From the IMG/VR virus record IMGVR_UViG_3300028412_000003: a DNA stretch of 64,000 bases; one strand, 5' to 3'. This document shows, in pieces, positions 30,013 to 36,235 of this stretch. The notes under the pieces are model-generated. The model searched no databases. It was not told the origin of the DNA and saw nothing but the letters and a program-made list of their open reading frames with translations. The stretch comes from a virus (lineage: Duplodnaviria > Caudoviricetes). The translations under genes were made by a program, and so were the position numbers. Numbering within the stretch: position 1 is the stretch's first letter; every line of letters starts with the position of its first letter.

Positions 30013-31893
30013 TTAACGGAGTAAAGTAAGACCTGCAAGAGTTTTCATACGAGTTATATCCTCATATGGTCTTTGTTGTTCTTCGTCTGCAAGAGGCTCC
30101 ATGTCAGAATCAACAGTTATTCCCGTGTGCTCTCTATAAATTTCCTGTATTCTTTCAATGAAATTTTTAGCAGGATTAATAAATTCGTTTCCATAATCTT
30201 TTTCAATTGCAGTAAGTACCGCAGTTTCGCCTTTAGGGAATCGTCCGTTGTCTCGATCAAATAATGAAAGAATATATTCAGGCAATGGTGTTTGAGGTTT
30301 TTCTTCCTCTTCTTCTCCATCCGGACATTCTTGTGCATTATTTGGATGATTTTTAATCAATTGATCTTTTATTTGATCTAAGTATTCGGTTGTAAAATAT
30401 TCCATAATTCCATCATAAAATCCTTCTGCACCTACATTTTCGATTGCAGTATGTATTAAATCACTTGCTGCATCGCTCATATATCCTTTGATGTCATCAG
30501 GATCAGTTAAATCATCATAACGAGAATAATCATAATTTTGGATAAGATTTTTAATTTCATCCATGACTTCTTCTTGTGCTCGTTCTTCTCCAGGTTCAGG
30601 TGTTCCCTGCGAACGATCAAATGCTCCTTGATCAAAGTCGTCTGGATAATTTCCTATCTCATTCATTGTTTTTTCAAAACTATTCATGTAGATGTCATTT
30701 TCTGCAATACCAACATACTTTAAACGCACATTACCTGCTAAACGATTCTTTTTACGAAATAACTCTGCAGCTTGACTTATATTCATGTTTGGTTGTGTAA
30801 GGAATGATGTTTTTATATTCTTCTTTTTACCCTCATCATATGTTACATTCCATTCTTTTTGTCCGGCGCGTGTATATGAAGATGTTTTTGGTGAGTCTTC
30901 TCCAACTAAATCATCAGCATTTAATTCTTTTGGTCCAGATTCTCCTATCAACTTATAGATATATGGAAATACGTCTTTAAGTTCTTCGTTAAATTGTTCA
31001 ATCGTAAGTTGCTTGATCCAATCTTGTTTTACATCTTCTGGTACTTCAGTTAATTCTGAACTTTCAAAAGTTTCAATTTCTTCTTTATAAAAGTTTTCTT
31101 TTTGTAGTTTATTGATACGATTCTTAACAGTTATAACTCGTTCTTTTACAACATCCATGTATTGTCCGAGTCCTTCTGCCATAACAGATGATCGACCCAT
31201 GTATGTTTTAAACTTCTTGAGGTTGGCCAATTCTTCAGATAATCCAGTTATATGTTTACCAAATTCGTCATGTGGTACTCCGCCTTCTGATACATGTCTT
31301 GCCATTGCCCTTGCGCCAGATATGTGTTTAAACGGATATTTAAATCTTTCTCCGTTGTCGCTCTCAATAAAAATACCCTCTATGTGTTGAGTTCTACCGG
31401 CGGGTATATCATTATTGACGCGCTGGGTGTGCTGAAGTCTTAATCTAGCATTCCCAATATCTTGAAAACTTACCTTTGATGTTCCGTACATCTTTGATTC
31501 TGTCATTTTATCATCTCCTGGACTCGTAGCGAGATACGAGTAATCTCTCTTTTGTAAATTGTCACGCTCTATATCTCTTGTTTCAAAATTAAGAGCTCTC
31601 TTTCGAGCAAATTTTCTAAGTTCTTTAAGAAATCCATACCATTGTGATTTAGCTATTCCATTTTCTATTGCTATAGAATCACTATTAAAGAGTATAACTA
31701 CTCCTTCTTCTTCACTTAAACTAACTGACACTTTGCCTTGCGAGTCTGAATTATTTTCGTAACTAAAATCAAAAAATCTTGCCTCTGAAGGTTCATTTGT
31801 TACTTGTCCTTCAGCGGTACCTATTGATACCGACGGAAATCTTCCTCGTATTTTGTTAAAAAGTTCTTCGCCTATTGTGTCTAAATCTCTCAT
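30013..31893 (-). CDS. Large acidic hypothetical protein (626 aa), likely late/virion
   Basis: ORF track; GATAAATA 4 nt upstream. Confidence 0.75.
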   Translation of the reverse strand: MRDLDTIGEELFNKIRGRFPSVSIGTAEGQVTNEPSEARFFDFSYENNSDSQGKVSVSLSEEEGVVILFNSDSIAIENGIAKSQWYGFLKELRKFARKRALNFETRDIERDNLQKRDYSYLATSPGDDKMTESKMYGTSKVSFQDIGNARLRLQHTQRVNNDIPAGRTQHIEGIFIESDNGERFKYPFKHISGARAMARHVSEGGVPHDEFGKHITGLSEELANLKKFKTYMGRSSVMAEGLGQYMDVVKERVITVKNRINKLQKENFYKEEIETFESSELTEVPEDVKQDWIKQLTIEQFNEELKDVFPYIYKLIGESGPKELNADDLVGEDSPKTSSYTRAGQKEWNVTYDEGKKKNIKTSFLTQPNMNISQAAELFRKKNRLAGNVRLKYVGIAENDIYMNSFEKTMNEIGNYPDDFDQGAFDRSQGTPEPGEERAQEEVMDEIKNLIQNYDYSRYDDLTDPDDIKGYMSDAASDLIHTAIENVGAEGFYDGIMEYFTTEYLDQIKDQLIKNHPNNAQECPDGEEEEEKPQTPLPEYILSLFDRDNGRFPKGETAVLTAIEKDYGNEFINPAKNFIERIQEIYREHTGITVDSDMEPLADEEQQRPYEDITRMKTLAGLTLLR

Positions 31894-31903
31894 ATCGTAT
31901 TTA

Positions 31904-33289
31904 TCAACCCATTGTTATAAACATCGGCATTGGTCTTACATCGTAATAATCGTCGGGGTCGGCTTGAACAAATGTTTGATATACAGCAGGGTCCCAATCT
32001 TTCATTACGGTTAATACTCTTATTGTAAGAAGAATAGCAGATACTAAATCATCTGGTCGATCGTTCTTTCCTTTGTAGGTTGTAGAATGAGCAACAAAAT
32101 CCTTTAATTGAGAAATAAGAGGTTTAGAATTAATTTTAAATTTATCGTTTTCGATTAGAGTTTTTAACTTAGCACAAGCTGAAATTTTAGTTCCGTGCGT
32201 GGTATTAAATCCTTTTCGAAATTTGCGTATATGTCCTTTTCTCATAGGTTCTGATACAAACAATCCAGGAATAGTTTCTTCACCAAAATCTTCAATAACA
32301 ATAAGAGCAGCTTCTCCTATTGTATTGTTTTCAACACTCCAATAAATGTTAGACGAGGAGCCGCACATTTCTTCAAGATAATTACATATTTCTCTTAGTA
32401 CTCGTATTTGTCCAGGAATAGCTGTAGAGTTATGTTTCCATTCTCCTATTTGTTCATATGTAGGAACTTCAAATACTTGTATAGCAGCATCGTTACCGCC
32501 GGTTCCCATAGAAGGATCAAGTGCAACAACATAACTAAATTTCTTATTTGGTTTTTTATACCAGCGTGTTTGTCCCATGTTAAGTAATGGTTCTCGCCCG
32601 GGCATGTTTGCTAATTTAATAGAAGATATAAGAGTTTCGTCAAATACAAGGAATTCACACCCATATTCACGCCGGAATCTTTCTTCACCTATACGACCTG
32701 TTTCTGCTTTTTTCCATTCCTCATCACGGTCCGGATGTTCGTTCCATGCAACAGTAAAAGAATGAAATCCATTTTCTCCCACTGTGCCTTCATTACCATA
32801 TTCGTCAAATTTATTTTCTGCTTCTTTCCAGATAGTAGCAAAAGTATCTTCGTCTGAGTTTGGTGTAGATGTTATAATAGCACGTCCACCAGTTGCTAGA
32901 GTAGGTGATATAGAAGTCCAAAATTCTATAGCAATGTTAGGTGGAACAAACGCAAACTCGTCACAATTTTTAGTTGTAATATTATTAGCTATAAACTTAT
33001 GGTTGTCTTCATCTACTTCAATTATATCATAAACTACCGACGACGGGTTTTCTGTAATTGATATAATTTTTTCATGGGTATTATTTGTTTCAATAATATC
33101 ACCAACCAACAAATCGGCTACTTTTCTTCTTTCATTGTTAATAAAAAAATAATGCCCCAATGTTGCATTAATACTATTATTATCTGTAACAATATTGTAT
33201 GTAATTTTTTCACCAGCACACGATACTCCTCGGAAATCTTTCCATCCTGTTGGAGTTAATATTTCATATTCATTGTTTTCAACAAACAT
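31904..33289 (-). CDS. terL: Terminase large subunit, C-terminal part, fused to a split-intein IntC (aa 1-108)
   Basis: IntC ends KFIANNITTKN then C-DEFAFVPP (Walker B); ITSTPN; nuclease ALDPSMG, VENN, DDLV; own SD AAGGA. Confidence 0.93.
   Translation of the reverse strand: MFVENNEYEILTPTGWKDFRGVSCAGEKITYNIVTDNNSINATLGHYFFINNERRKVADLLVGDIIETNNTHEKIISITENPSSVVYDIIEVDEDNHKFIANNITTKNCDEFAFVPPNIAIEFWTSISPTLATGGRAIITSTPNSDEDTFATIWKEAENKFDEYGNEGTVGENGFHSFTVAWNEHPDRDEEWKKAETGRIGEERFRREYGCEFLVFDETLISSIKLANMPGREPLLNMGQTRWYKKPNKKFSYVVALDPSMGTGGNDAAIQVFEVPTYEQIGEWKHNSTAIPGQIRVLREICNYLEEMCGSSSNIYWSVENNTIGEAALIVIEDFGEETIPGLFVSEPMRKGHIRKFRKGFNTTHGTKISACAKLKTLIENDKFKINSKPLISQLKDFVAHSTTYKGKNDRPDDLVSAILLTIRVLTVMKDWDPAVYQTFVQADPDDYYDVRPMPMFITMG
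32966..33289 (-). mobile_element. Split intein C-fragment (108 aa)
   Basis: Block B TLGH, block F VYDI, block G ...TKN with Cys at +1. Confidence 0.9.
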
Positions 33290-34191
33290 ATAATTTCCTT
33301 TACGATTAGGTCTTGCGTTGATTGCCAGATGTAATATGTTAAAAATTGTCTATTTTTAAATAACGAACGGGCTTTATTATAGTCATATGTTAATACTTCA
33401 TCTGCAGATTTCTTCTTACCTCTAGGTGGTTTCCAATCCTTCCATTCTGATTCAGAAAGAGTTGGATCTGCATGCCAGGCCGTTGATTGATATTCTATTG
33501 CCATCTTAAATTTCGGAATAGTTAAATCCCAAAAATAATAATTTTCAGTCGCTGTATCTTTAATCCCATATTCGTTTTTATCAAAATAATATTTGATTTC
33601 GTTTTGATCTAACCAATCAATAATCGGTTTCAAAACTCTTTTAGAAAGTTTGCTAGCACCACCGGTGCCTGTTTTATTGTTTTTAATTAAGGTTTGTTTC
33701 TGTTTTTTGTGTGCATTTTGTTCGATGGTTAAACCGTTGGGCAATATTGTAGTTAATCTGGCATCAGCTTGCCGGCGGTAGCCATTCCTACCAAATTCAT
33801 CAACATTTGCCATATGTGTTGCACGAGTTTTTTTACCTTTTTTATCATACCCACTTAGACCATCAGAATCTTTTTGCTTTAAGATTTTTCTCGCTTTGAC
33901 TTGGCCAACTTCGTATTTAGACAAGCCAGTTTCTGCGTCAATCTTTTTAAGACCCATTTTAATATTTCGTTTTCTTGCTTCGCTAACACCTCTAATACCC
34001 GGATACAACCGGTCGTATTCTTCAACTGTCATTTCTAATACGTTGACGATATAAGATGATTTAATCATACTCAATCGTTGATTACTAACCGGACACACAA
34101 TATAATCAATACGCTCTTTCATTTCAGATTGATATAGTTTTTGATTTCTTTTTTGATTACGTTCTATGAACTTTTTAATTTTTATTTGCAT
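33256..34191 (-). mobile_element. Free-standing putative homing endonuclease, Vsr-like PD-(D/E)xK
   Basis: WDLTIPKFKMAIEYQSTAWHAD; lies between the two terL halves and overlaps the IntC start by 34 nt. Confidence 0.75.
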
Positions 34192-34206
34192 ATTACAAGC
34201 TTTCTG

Positions 34207-34845
34207 TTAAACTAGGACCTTTGTGGCTCCTGTTAATCTTACGTATAGATCTTTTAGTGTAACAGTTTCTTCTATTTTTGTCAATTTATTTCGAATTTGG
34301 ACCGTAGTAGTGTCGCCGTCCAAGCAATATAATAATGATATAGCCATACCACGACCGGTATTATTGGTTGTAGTTTGAGCGACAATTCTTGAACCATTTT
34401 CAAAAACAATACTTCCTTTATTATATTCTGTTTGTCCTGCACGTACATGATCAGGACACATTTCATAAGCATACCGTATTCGTTGCATAATTTCTAATGC
34501 ACCGGTATATTTATGAGCCGCAATTAGAATAGTTTGATTAGGATTAAACATTGCATACCAAAGCAAATATCCTGCAGCACAGGTAGTTTTTCCTGTTTGT
34601 CGAGGTAACATATTAATATTAAATCGATATTTGTGATAACTATCTAATAATCTTGTTTGGTAAGAAAATGGGTCAAACAGCAATTCTCCTTTGACAGAAT
34701 GCTGTATGTAGAAGAAGTTCCTTAAAAAATAATGATGTCCATCTTCTGGATCCATACACCTAACTAAATCATCAATTTGGTCTTGTGTATATTTTTCCTG
34801 TTGGTTTGCCTTCTTAACAAGAACTCCGTCTACATTTCTACTCAT
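34207..34845 (-). CDS. terL: Terminase large subunit, N-terminal part (aa 1-173), fused to a split-intein IntN (39 aa)
   Basis: Walker A PRQTGKT, ENGSRI, GRGMAISLLY then CLDGDTTTVQI...LKDLYVRL. Confidence 0.93.
   Translation of the reverse strand: MSRNVDGVLVKKANQQEKYTQDQIDDLVRCMDPEDGHHYFLRNFFYIQHSVKGELLFDPFSYQTRLLDSYHKYRFNINMLPRQTGKTTCAAGYLLWYAMFNPNQTILIAAHKYTGALEIMQRIRYAYEMCPDHVRAGQTEYNKGSIVFENGSRIVAQTTTNNTGRGMAISLLYCLDGDTTTVQIRNKLTKIEETVTLKDLYVRLTGATKVLV
34210..34326 (-). mobile_element. Split intein N-fragment (39 aa)
   Basis: Block A C-L-x-G-D-T; Cys codon at 34324-34326. Confidence 0.9.
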
Positions 34846-34846
34846 T

Positions 34847-36235
34847 TTATAGTCCTGCTAATTTCTTAAGATCCATCATTGATTTAGTACTAGAAGCAAC
34901 TCTTTGATTGCCAACCTTGTGAGTAGCTAAAGCAATAATATCATTTACTTCTTTGCTTTCGGACATAGCTTTCTTATTGTTAATCTTACTATCACCTACT
35001 AATTTACCCTTAGTAACATTCTTCTGTTCAGGACCTGTAGTAGGTGAACTCTTACCAGCTTTGTGGGTTCCCTTTAATTGATCGCCTGGACGAGAAGTCT
35101 TTCCTGTTCCTGAAAACGCTTCTTTGGTCTTTTTGTCTGGACCCTTTGTGTCTCTTGTATTTTCTAAGTTTGGTTTCTTTGTTTCACCAAACTTCCTTAC
35201 TTTACCTTGTCCGTCTTTTGTTAAATGTCCCGAATGGTTCTGTCCTGGCTTCTTACCTGAAGATCCAACTGCCTTTTTAGTTTTACCTTTTTTGAATTCT
35301 CCGGACTTTACCTTCTTTTCGATTTTGTCTTTTTCACCATCTTTGTAAGCGCCTTCTTTTACATTATGATGTGTCTTTCCACACTTTTCACATGGTGACT
35401 TACCGCAATTGCAATTGCATTTGGTTTCTTTTACAATCTTTTCGCTTAGAGCTGCATACAACTGATCGCGTATACTCTCTGTTCTTTTATTATCCATAAC
35501 ACTTAGATCCTCTAATTTCTTTGTTAATTCTTCACCAACAGACATTGGATTGTCTCCGTTGGCTGCAGGCGAATACATCTTACTCTTGGGTCCAGCACCG
35601 CCTGCTAGATCATGTTGCATGTAATCATTATCTTGATAATCTTCGTCTGGTGAATTATCCCATTCTTCAACATCTTCTGATTTTTCTTCTACTCTACCTT
35701 CATTTTCTAAGAAATGTAAAACTGAAACAGCATCTTGACCAGTTGCTTTTTCAACTAAAGCTGCCATCGATTGTGCTTCATCGTATGAGTATTTCTTTTT
35801 CTGCCAATCTTTGTCAACAACTTCGATACACGATTGCATTGATTCCCATCTATCCGAATCATCTTGCGCTGGATCTGTTTCCCGCTCATCAACTCCGTTG
35901 TCCATCATTGCTTCGTGTTCGTCTGCTGCACGATCCATTGCTTTTGCCATTCCATTAGGAGCATCAACATCAATAGGTGCGCCTAGTTCACCGGCGCCTA
36001 TTCCAGTAACTGAAAGTGAAGGTTTTGGAGGACCGTCTGGCATTTCAGGTGGTTTTGACATCTCGGGTGGTGGAGCAACACCAGCATTCTTAAACATTGA
36101 CATAAGTTGTTCAACTTCAGATGCGTTTTCTCCGGTTAATGATAGGTTAACTGAAGCTGTTTCAGTTAATTTATTCTTTTTATCAAGATTAAGATCAATT
36201 TCTTTTATCCTGTTATATACTTTATTAAAATCCAT
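34847..36235 (-). CDS. Low-complexity charged protein, likely internal head/core protein
   Basis: Acidic and K/G-rich segments separated by x-x-E motifs; SD GGAGG. Confidence 0.6.
   Translation of the reverse strand: MDFNKVYNRIKEIDLNLDKKNKLTETASVNLSLTGENASEVEQLMSMFKNAGVAPPPEMSKPPEMPDGPPKPSLSVTGIGAGELGAPIDVDAPNGMAKAMDRAADEHEAMMDNGVDERETDPAQDDSDRWESMQSCIEVVDKDWQKKKYSYDEAQSMAALVEKATGQDAVSVLHFLENEGRVEEKSEDVEEWDNSPDEDYQDNDYMQHDLAGGAGPKSKMYSPAANGDNPMSVGEELTKKLEDLSVMDNKRTESIRDQLYAALSEKIVKETKCNCNCGKSPCEKCGKTHHNVKEGAYKDGEKDKIEKKVKSGEFKKGKTKKAVGSSGKKPGQNHSGHLTKDGQGKVRKFGETKKPNLENTRDTKGPDKKTKEAFSGTGKTSRPGDQLKGTHKAGKSSPTTGPEQKNVTKGKLVGDSKINNKKAMSESKEVNDIIALATHKVGNQRVASSTKSMMDLKKLAGL

Follow-up and report, generated by a model that had tools for sequence, protein, structure and literature searches.

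How could a phage make a working DNA-packaging motor when the gene for its large terminase subunit (terL) appears broken in the middle of the ATPase site? The window, the 64,000-nt stretch of DNA analysed here, comes from an uncultured freshwater (lake) jumbo phage with T4-type packaging genes, and its 86-kb record, about 24% of the genome, holds a single terL; another, uninterrupted copy might lie in the rest of the genome. Three tightly packed genes, ORF1, ORF2 and ORF3, lie in this order on the minus strand (Table 1), all of them intact. ORF2 fills the whole gap between the outer two, beginning 15 nt after the ORF1 stop and overlapping ORF3 by 34 nt. The halves of the putative intein, IntN and IntC, have translation signals of their own, a TAA after IntN and an AAGGAA 5 nt before the ATG of IntC, and separate stop and start signals are also found in more than 25 relatives, some of which have no endonuclease gene. 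The late-promoter motif known from relatives is absent from the ORF1-ORF2 spacer, and a scan of the locus for sigma-70 promoters and terminators gave nothing above shuffled sequences.

Table 1. Features of the putatively fractured terL locus, in positions of the window.
Feature	Coordinates	Strand	Remarks
terL N-extein, 173 aa	34327..34845	-	ends ...GMAISLLY, aligned to the hydrophobic strand of Walker B
Walker A GKTT, aa 85-88 of N-extein	34593..34582	-	
IntN, 39 aa	34210..34326	-	Cys1 and block A (CLDGDT), strand, helix (...LKDLYVRL), then linker
TAA stop of ORF1	34209..34207	-	directly after IntN ...KVLV
ORF1, TerL-N + IntN, 212 aa	34845..34207	-	IntN starts at Cys174
Spacer from ORF1 stop to ORF2 ATG, 15 nt	34192..34206	-	weak Shine-Dalgarno GAAAG
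ORF2, 311 aa	34191..33256	-	free-standing predicted homing-endonuclease gene
Shine-Dalgarno AAGGAA of the IntC/TerL-C gene	33300..33295	-	within the ORF2 3' end; 5 nt separate it from the ATG at 33289
ORF3, IntC + TerL-C, 461 aa	33289..31904	-	
IntC, 108 aa	32966..33289	-	blocks B (T43..H46), F (D88, H97) and G (K107-N108)
terL C-extein, 353 aa and stop	31904..32965	-	Cys+1, Walker B Asp-Glu (CDEFAF), RNaseH-like nuclease domain

Both exteins are recognizable as parts of a T4-type terminase. The N-extein matches Pfam Terminase_6N (E 7.7e-10) and two families of terminase large subunits (phrog_5989 and phrog_36964), and aligns to residues 93-253 of T4 gp17 (E 1e-20), ending at ...MIY253. The C-extein matches Pfam Terminase_6C and phrog_36964 (E 1.3e-78) and aligns to gp17 residues 255-549 (E 1.5e-14), its second residue corresponding to D255 of DECAF. 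Since the intein is preceded by the equivalent of Y253 and the second C-extein residue is D255, Cys+1 replaces I254. According to this alignment, the junction lies within Walker B, between gp17 Y253 and I254, just before D255-E256. The intein-less TerL of phage PA5oct (531 aa, 51% identical) runs across the junction without a gap, reading SLVY-LDEMAF. Alignments of PA5oct and of an E. coli Asteriusvirus (EJP2) that reached into IntC turned out to be BLAST over-extensions; both TerLs are without a Walker B intein.

IntC itself reads MFVENNEYEILTP...ITTKN and is followed by extein CDEFAF.... An earlier note on this DNA had placed the split of terL at Walker B, with which the gp17 alignment of both exteins agrees. 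The dimensions that it gave, a 39-aa IntN, a 108-aa IntC and a joined terminase of 526 aa (173 + 353), hold in coordinates and residues, as does its separate IntC reading frame with a Shine-Dalgarno of its own.

Block A is located in IntN, while blocks B, F and G are located in IntC, which amounts to a short-N/long-C split. Cys1 and block A (Cys174 of ORF1, CLDGDT) open IntN; Cys1 is present in 20/20 related IntN segments, and the length of IntN is conserved at 37-39 aa in 20 related loci. In ORF3, block B reads ATLGH (T43 and H46) and block F reads VYD88...NH97KF, followed by N108 and C109 (Cys+1) at the splice junction. N5, H46, D88, H97, N108 and Cys+1 do not vary among 35 diverse family members, in which T43 shows a conservation of at least 90%. 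Where the penultimate His would be expected, IntC has Lys107, whose conservation among these 35 members likewise reaches at least 90%; in relatives inserted at the Walker B site (site b), the residue here is K, H, S, Q or F. The block G His normally assists Asn cyclisation and is usual, not obligatory, in class 1 inteins. All of the splicing residues named in the earlier note (Cys1, TxxH, the block F Asp, the terminal Asn and Cys+1) are thus found, and the Lys that it had remarked upon is present too, but as a family trait and not a peculiarity of this copy.

A contiguous homologue (P0014:172-330, ~55-56% identical in IntC), standing in for the window's two chains, was modelled as a HINT fold (pLDDT 92.5). 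IntN corresponds to the first strand-strand-helix of this model, and the split point falls in its sole low-confidence loop. VidaL, a split intein with a far shorter IntN and another host protein, resembles the model most closely. Among the 65 PDB inteins matched at E≤1e-3, this atypically split VidaL (6VGV/6VGW; Foldseek E 6.7e-9, TM 0.78/0.85, rmsd 2.2) ranked first, at 19% identity, with Cat (TMt 0.80) also among the best matches. At the sequence level, the top PDB match of IntC was CatC (6DSL_B), the AceL/GOS-TerL consensus, with E 2.9e-5 and 27.5 bits; IntC begins 7 residues before the strand aligned to CatC residues 15 onward. IntN alone, too short a query, gave no match in the PDB. These sequence comparisons support a fracture of terL at Walker B by a class 1 intein with an atypical split, of the AceL/GOS-TerL type.

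The same organization recurs in many relatives. The IntC+TerL-C architecture was found in at least 75 metagenomic proteins (90% clustering), and a profile search of a 50%-identity representative library yielded 617 matches at E≤1e-10, a number that also takes in contiguous forms and inteins from elsewhere in TerL. More than 25 independent contigs from metagenomes and IMG/VR (ENA, JGI, IMG/VR) show the three-gene layout, with an ORF2/ORF3 overlap of 31-34 nt, and the pattern is therefore not due to chance. Because the relatives are too diverged, with saturated synonymous sites, divergence was measured as amino-acid identity per part; all five parts are equally diverged (56-66% mean pairwise identity), as expected if selection acts equally on the intein halves and on the essential exteins.

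Several states of the locus coexist among the relatives: a contiguous mini-intein, a split intein with the nuclease gene, a split intein from which the nuclease gene has been deleted, and a split by a stop codon only. At the DNA level, two loci (L026/L027) match two others (L005/L006) with 98% identity, yet 840 bp of the nuclease gene are missing from the former, with the split kept; the presence or absence of this gene between 98%-identical phages shows loss by deletion, not homing. In another locus (L015), only a stop and 15 nt separate the halves. Salicola phage SCTP-2, which has been cultured, carries its homologous IntN(b) and IntC(b) genes on opposite strands at a distance of ~40 kb, so that in this phage the halves can be joined as proteins only.

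ORF2, identified through fold search alone, is on the strength of its model a free-standing Vsr-like homing-endonuclease gene. Its N-terminal ~175 aa, with a CP..S..R motif and four helix repeats, are presumably DNA-binding, while the C-terminal ~130 aa (about 33654..33259) form by fold a Vsr-like (EDxHD-type) nuclease domain. In the AF2 model (pLDDT 86.8), residues 181-309 superimpose on the catalytic domain of I-Bth0305I (3R3P_A) with Z 8.2 and rmsd 3.2 over 94/97 residues, and ORF2 matches Vsr (1VSR/1CW0) with Z 8.0/7.8 (VIA-align); the match is moderate, as a Z of 7-8 can reflect a common arrangement, and the three top matches are all Vsr-type. Foldseek returned the same Vsr-type folds with probabilities of 0.85-0.97. 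D222, E233, H240 and D270, invariant in 17 orthologues, fit Vsr D51/H69/D97 and the family Glu in order and spacing, the two features on which they were compared. Orthologues at the same position number 16 and are 50-68% identical. No sequence-level family was matched by Pfam, PDB phmmer, PDB profile search or per-member Pfam scans, and the only PHROGs match was weak, to a family of unknown function. By predicted fold, the combination of an N-terminal DNA-binding region and a C-terminal nuclease is that of the I-Bth0305I/Vsr-like ('EDxHD') family (PMC3239194; 3R3P), although ORF2 has no detectable sequence similarity to I-Bth0305I by phmmer, profile search or Pfam.

We consider it very probable that the fractured terL is translated as three separate proteins, two of which are trans-spliced to the 526-aa TerL. 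A mini-intein would have been inserted inside Walker B, and its coding DNA would later have been interrupted by the free-standing Vsr-like endonuclease gene, in the part encoding the loop that joins blocks A and B. TerL-N+IntN (212 aa), the endonuclease (311 aa) and IntC+TerL-C (461 aa, with its Shine-Dalgarno inside the endonuclease gene) would then be translated separately, and the 39-aa IntN would dock into the 108-aa IntC to complete the HINT fold. Class 1 chemistry would follow, with an N-S acyl shift at Cys1, trans-thioesterification to Cys+1, cyclisation of Asn108 and an S-N shift, and with Lys107 probably acting in place of the usual penultimate His. Joining ...SLLY to CDEF... would restore an intact Walker B ATPase site. 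We infer this reaction, and its rate, from anatomy, homology, residue conservation, folds and natural variants. Splicing would not involve the endonuclease, whose presumed role is to spread the cassette during co-infection through cleavage of cassette-less alleles, its putative targets. With terL fractured at Walker B by a split intein, an active terminase would require protein trans-splicing.

Alternatively, the intein fragments might bring the TerL halves together without ligation, as a non-covalent two-piece terminase, or the intein might be decayed and the gene dead. Such a reading would accommodate the Lys in place of the penultimate His, and fractured genes without an intein do exist (an SbcD-like locus, PMC2677866). 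It is nevertheless improbable, because Cys1, the block B Thr/His, the block F Asp/His, Asn and Cys+1 are invariant at only 45-60% identity, which is more than mere association would require, and because an unspliced complex would leave ~147 residues within the Walker B strand. Block G differs among site-b relatives (KN, HN, SN or HQ), but N/Q and Cys are retained in every one, and the intact reading frames argue against decay.

Joining before or during translation, whether an ORF2-bearing intron is spliced out of the RNA, the stop codon is read through or the ribosome bypasses the gap, is less likely still than a two-piece or decayed terminase. ORF1 and ORF2 do share a frame, with one TAA and five codons between them, but this relation is not conserved in relatives. 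Group I introns can indeed house Vsr-like endonuclease genes (PMC2677866, PMC3239194); here, however, a group I/II intron or other structured RNA carrying ORF2 was rejected for lack of any Rfam match at E≤1 over 31500-35300 on both strands, and ORF2, filling the gap and overlapping ORF3 in another frame, leaves no room for an intron core. A search for sequencing runs containing the stretch turned up none made from RNA. Endonuclease-deleted alleles keep the stop, the separate Shine-Dalgarno and the ATG, and the distant, opposed halves of SCTP-2 are likewise at odds with joining at the RNA level or on the ribosome. An assembly or sequencing artefact, either a contig of chimeric origin or a contiguous intein gene wrongly given a stop or frameshift, can practically be dismissed even though the window derives from a metagenome-assembled viral contig, given that its IntC+TerL-C protein also occurs on a second contig of 228 kb, that 100% and 92% of sampled words of the stretch are found in lake-metagenome runs of two different studies, and that the layout is identical, overlap included, in the independent contigs described above.

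Trans-splicing being the preferred reading, we compared the insertion site with those of the known terminase inteins. A second TerL site (site c) reads ...EFE, then C or S at the start of the intein, and ...SHN followed by CEF at its end, and it is there that inteins matched by the AceL/GOS/Cat type are found; in the window this site is uninterrupted (EYG-CEF, ORF3 aa 209-213). CatC matches site-c inteins (...SHN followed by CEFLGS) with E 1.3e-13 and 54.5 bits, far better than the window's IntC, and AceL/Cat thus appear to belong to another TerL site. In keeping with this, the 6DSL chain goes on as ...SHA-CES, and the inteins closely related to it are inserted after ...EFE and end in ...SHN, before CEFLGS. 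As Ser1 variants occurred only among site-c inteins in the loci compared, GOS-TerL is most likely at site c as well. The insertion site of AceL/GOS-TerL, judged from the 6DSL chain and homologous loci, therefore appears to differ from the Walker B site of the window. The likeness to AceL-TerL proposed in the earlier note is borne out in homology to CatC and in a split within the same loop, but apparently does not extend to the insertion site.

AceL-TerL and the consensus Cat-TerL (PDB 6DSL) were described by Thiel 2014 and by Stevens 2018, both cited by PMC11766414. The window's intein shares with them a homologous HINT domain, a split just before the YEILTPxGW/KVLTPSGF strand giving a short IntN and a long IntC, Cys1/Cys+1 and TerL as the host protein. 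However, it is only ~25-30% identical to Cat, in which a final ...SHN (Asn changed to Ala in the PDB entry) precedes CE..., compared with ...TKN before CDEF in the window, and the window's IntN has 39 aa as against 25-30 aa in AceL/Cat-TerL. GOS-TerL differs in its lengths (37/115 aa versus 39/108 aa) and in Ser1/Cys+1, compared with Cys1/Cys+1 and the Lys-Asn end in the window.

The arrangement is not new. Dassa, London, Stoddard, Schueler-Furman and Pietrokovski described 'fractured genes' in 2009, among them the Lake Gatun 'Terminase' locus, later GOS-TerL (PMC2677866), and split point, terminase host, Vsr-like endonuclease and gene arrangement were all covered there. As in those loci, half of which have Vsr-like endonucleases, a split intein interrupts a phage enzyme gene, and its halves are separated by a free-standing endonuclease gene; overlapping coding frames and a freshwater-lake habitat are further points in common with the Lake Gatun terminase. 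From the sequences, the only differences from known fractured terminases appear to be the insertion site and the Lys-Asn ending. As a discovery, the locus is incremental.

Its family is an unusually complete series from mini-intein to split intein: contiguous, split by the endonuclease gene, with that gene deleted, with only a stop, and with dispersed halves. For phage biology, it would add one more essential motor made only after trans-splicing. Short-IntN split inteins are scarce and useful for protein engineering, and the 39/108 pair with its Lys-Asn end and low identity to Cat is a candidate orthogonal pair. We tentatively suggest, as a possibility that we hold doubtful, that the Walker B Lys-Asn inteins of TerL form a functionally distinct branch of the atypically split inteins that splices efficiently without the His, does not cross-react with AceL, GOS or Cat, and has a selected endonuclease. 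If so, site-b Lys-Asn inteins would be a new orthogonal short-IntN ligation pair, and the endonuclease, as conserved as the terminase, would be kept by selection and not be a decaying parasite.

No split intein in a terminase Walker B was found in the literature, the coverage of which was incomplete, so that this absence is no proof of novelty. The mycobacteriophage TerL1-e intein, for which splicing has been shown (Kelley et al. 2016, PMC5050341), likewise lies within Walker B of a large terminase. However, TerL1-e is contiguous, groups with class 3 and resides in a Terminase_1 protein, whereas the intein in the window is split, of predicted class 1, and resides in a Terminase_6 (T4-type) protein.

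In the window, the terminase gene terL is fractured, as the earlier note had described: 31904-34845 on the minus strand holds three closely packed ORFs, and the lengths of the two terminase parts (173 + 353, 526 aa joined) and the separate SD sequence of the IntC gene (AAGGAA, 5 nt, ATG) were recovered as well. Residues 1-173 of ORF1 match the Pfam family Terminase_6N and terminase PHROGs. ORF3 begins with the 108-residue C-terminal intein half, IntC (MFVENNEYEILTP...ITTKN), followed by CDEFAF and the remaining TerL, including Terminase_6C. Each part is single-copy in the 86-kb IMG/VR viral contig (estimated 24% complete), and DNA of the locus is present in lake-water metagenomes. Among cultured phages, the closest TerLs belong to jumbo phages (PA5oct, the GAP32 group, Atu_ph07 and SCTP-2). 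Between ORF1 and ORF2, 34192-34209 comprises only TAA and five codons, and readthrough of this stop would yield an IntN-endonuclease fusion; the shared frame is probably due to chance, because relatives do not keep it.

Coordinates of the fractured terL genes in the window and in Salicola phage SCTP-2
Feature	Coordinates	Strand	Description
ORF1	34845..34207	minus	212 aa; TerL-N (173 aa) + 39-residue tail (IntN) from CLDGDT, stop TAA
ORF2	34191..33256	minus	311 aa, endonuclease gene; start 15 bases past ORF1 stop, in ORF1's frame
ORF3	33289..31904	minus	461 aa, IntC + TerL-C; first 34 nt overlap ORF2 end
SCTP-2 terL pieces	L089 2992-5076; L091 1159-2052; L092 1764-1372

The element is an atypically split intein. 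Block A is located in the 39-aa IntN, and IntC carries block B (T43, H46), block F (D88, H97) and block G (K107, N108), with Cys+1 next, so that all the splicing residues originally named (Cys1, block B Thr/His, block F Asp, Asn and Cys+1) are present. When all PDB sequences were compared, IntC matched CatC best (6DSL_B, E 2.9e-5), the C-half of Cat, a consensus of the AceL-TerL and GOS-TerL inteins; IntC starts a few residues ahead of the same strand at which CatC aligns. The fold was modelled on a contiguous natural homologue (P0014:172-330, 41-row alignment), which stands for the two chains of the window. The model displayed a clean HINT fold (pLDDT 92.5), its best structural matches being VidaL (TM 0.78/0.85, rmsd 2.2), itself an atypically split intein, and Cat (TMt 0.80). 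The window's cut point corresponds to the sole weak loop of this model, past the first helix. Judging from sequence, we predict that the intein very likely splices in trans.

The N-extein could be aligned to T4 gp17 as far as ...MIY253, and residue 2 of the C-extein aligns with D255 of DECAF, from where the alignment runs on; the intein therefore lies inside Walker B. The hydrophobic strand is encoded by one gene and the catalytic Asp-Glu by the other, with Cys+1 taking the position of gp17 I254. The TerL of PA5oct, which has no intein (531 aa), is 51% identical to the joined exteins and gap-free at the junction (SLVY-LDEMAF in PA5oct, SLLY-CDEFAF in the window). Both alignments bear out the proposed insertion site.

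A search restricted to the IntC region retrieved 77 proteins, about 65 of which are 452-470 aa long with an IntC + TerL-C architecture, the match ending almost always in ...TKN-CDEFAF. Among 35 diverse members (41-60% identity to the window), N5, H46, D88, H97, N108 and C+1 never vary. K107 is conserved in at least 90% of these members, which makes the penultimate Lys characteristic of the family: its presence in place of His was correctly noted, but it is no oddity of this copy. When 1.84 billion representatives were searched with a profile, 2,419 matched at E<=1e-3, of which 617 reached E<=1e-10. Among the 45 of the 150 top matches listed from this search that a motif pattern could parse, the block G endings of Walker B split inteins varied (KN, HN, SN, HQ and others). 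IntN is well conserved in 20 loci (37-39 aa). Across eight complete loci all five parts have diverged to an equal degree (mean pairwise identity: N-extein 64%, IntN 66%, endonuclease 62%, IntC 56%, C-extein 58%), in keeping with a long shared inheritance under selection.

In the cultured Salicola phage SCTP-2 (MF360958.1; 440 kb), terL is spread over three genes that lie far apart, near 216 kb, 257 kb and 429 kb, and on different strands. The first piece encodes TerL 1-86 and an IntN, the second an IntC, TerL 87-173 and another IntN, and the third, gene 224, the matching IntC and TerL-C; only the last is annotated as a terminase. Two atypically split inteins, at Walker A (GK-T) and Walker B, connect the pieces, and the second and third pieces lie ~40 kb apart on opposite strands. 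With its halves dispersed, this viable phage would depend on a homologue of the window's intein that acts in trans, and this is the strongest indirect support for trans action in this analysis. In a literature search on SCTP-2 and Salicola, no title or abstract appeared to treat a three-gene terL. The Walker B IntC of SCTP-2 ends in Gln (..VSQ-CDEF), and the third piece additionally contains a contiguous intein.

When the three ORFs were mapped on 86 related loci, the window's layout was found in ~27 loci with a Walker B intein, with a gap of 903-959 nt and the same short ORF2/ORF3 overlap. Loci L026 and L027 are 98% identical in DNA to L005 and L006, yet 840 bp of the endonuclease gene are missing from them; this deletion is bounded by two TGCATT repeats, and the IntN stop and IntC start are retained. 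L011 resembles this type, and in L015 the halves are parted by a stop codon and 15 nt alone. As endonuclease-deleted loci are still split, the split form persists without the endonuclease gene. Contiguous mini-inteins of equal length occur in L028 and in proteins P0014, P0058, P0074 and P0050. The deletion allele (L005 3084-3922 versus L026 ~985) leaves an 84-nt spacer that still has the IntC ribosome-binding site. Locus L036 has a partial terL without intein (1-552; equivalent to spliced-protein residues 80-209) immediately 5' of a complete fractured one; this reflects either partial duplication or chimeric assembly.

Three other readings were weighed (ALTERNATIVES). An intron carrying ORF2 that joins the halves into one contiguous ORF, a case raised in the earlier note, is unlikely: an Rfam scan of the locus matched nothing, there is no space for an intron core, the endonuclease-deleted alleles retain stop and start, and the SCTP-2 halves are dispersed. 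Non-covalent assembly of the TerL halves, or a dead gene, is an improbable reading that leaves the invariant splicing residues unexplained. An assembly artefact is excluded, as the same arrangement recurs in independent assemblies. The fractured terL is confirmed as an observation, and its reading as a trans-splicing intein is supported, at the sequence level, by anatomy, junction alignments, intein homology and relatives.

Fractured genes were described by Dassa et al. 2009 (PMC2677866), including the terminase intein later named GOS-TerL. According to PMC11766414, GOS-TerL (37/115 aa, Ser1/Cys+1) and AceL-TerL (25/104 aa) were later demonstrated to trans-splice and were combined into Cat (30/104 aa). 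The window's intein is homologous to all three and split at the same place, so the suggested AceL-TerL type holds in these respects; however, GOS-TerL and AceL-TerL apparently occupy another TerL site, judging from homologous loci and the 6DSL chain, which runs on ...SHA-CE.... Inteins at that second site (...EFE-C or S...SHN-CEFLGS) match CatC far better (E 1.3e-13) and include Ser1 variants whose IntN pieces are 25-43 aa long; the site is unbroken in the window (EYG-CEF). The Walker B intein of mycobacteriophage Gaia differs in being contiguous, class-3 and in a Terminase_1 protein (PMC5050341). A literature search of incomplete coverage found no description of terminase Walker B interrupted by a split intein. 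The fractured-terminase arrangement is already known; what differs is the Lys-Asn block G and, apparently, the insertion site.

In this phage group TerL is a hot spot for inteins: at least three sites are used, namely Walker A (GKT-T), Walker B and EYG-CEF, and two or three of them are often filled within one terL. Walker A inteins (ORF1 residue 86/87) occur in L001, L007, L010, L014, L018, L021 and L029, and EYG-CEF inteins (ORF3 residue ~211) in L009, L011, L014, L015, L018, L025, L038 and L039. Inteins of different sites are homologous (30-40% identity, with the YEILTPxGW strand in common). The window's terL is occupied at Walker B alone.

ORF2 had no Pfam match and no PDB sequence match; 16 orthologues occupy the same position (50-68% identity). 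Its AF2 model (pLDDT 86.8) has two parts: the N-terminal one contains a CPxS..R motif as well as four helix repeats, and the C-terminal one is an alpha/beta domain. This domain best matched the catalytic domain of I-Bth0305I (Z 8.2, 94/97 residues); Vsr itself (Z 8.0/7.8) was among its other top matches, as were Vsr-like domains in AbaSI and PvuRts1I. D222, E233, H240 and D270 are invariant in the family. With a mean pairwise identity of 62% among relatives, the free-standing endonuclease (33256-34191) equals the essential terminase exteins in conservation (58-64%) and exceeds IntC (56%), which is unexpected for a selfish gene, as such a gene should decay once fixed. In L034, L036, L038, L039 and SCTP-2 (gene 225, L089 1883-2908), the endonuclease in the ORF2 position shares the presumed N-terminal DNA-binding region (44-53% identical over ~140-185 aa) and has another C-terminal nuclease domain, with an HNH-like motif recognized by eye in gene 225. 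This looks like a modular swap of the catalytic domain on a common targeting domain.

Over the 25-35 nt past the IntN stop, most relatives (L001, L003, L005, L008-L010, L012, L013, L017, L019, L029) carry an element, TGACGAGTTTGCATTTGTATAAATA, that the stop codon itself opens. It is an out-of-frame copy, ~17 nt long, of the C-extein start (GAC GAG TTT GCx TTT GT, the Walker B codons for DEFAFV), and leads directly into TATAAATA, a late-promoter motif of the T4 type located just 5' of the endonuclease ATG. The element is absent from the window, which has TAACAGAAAGCTTGTAATATG there. It may have been left behind when the endonuclease cassette inserted beside Walker B on an earlier occasion.
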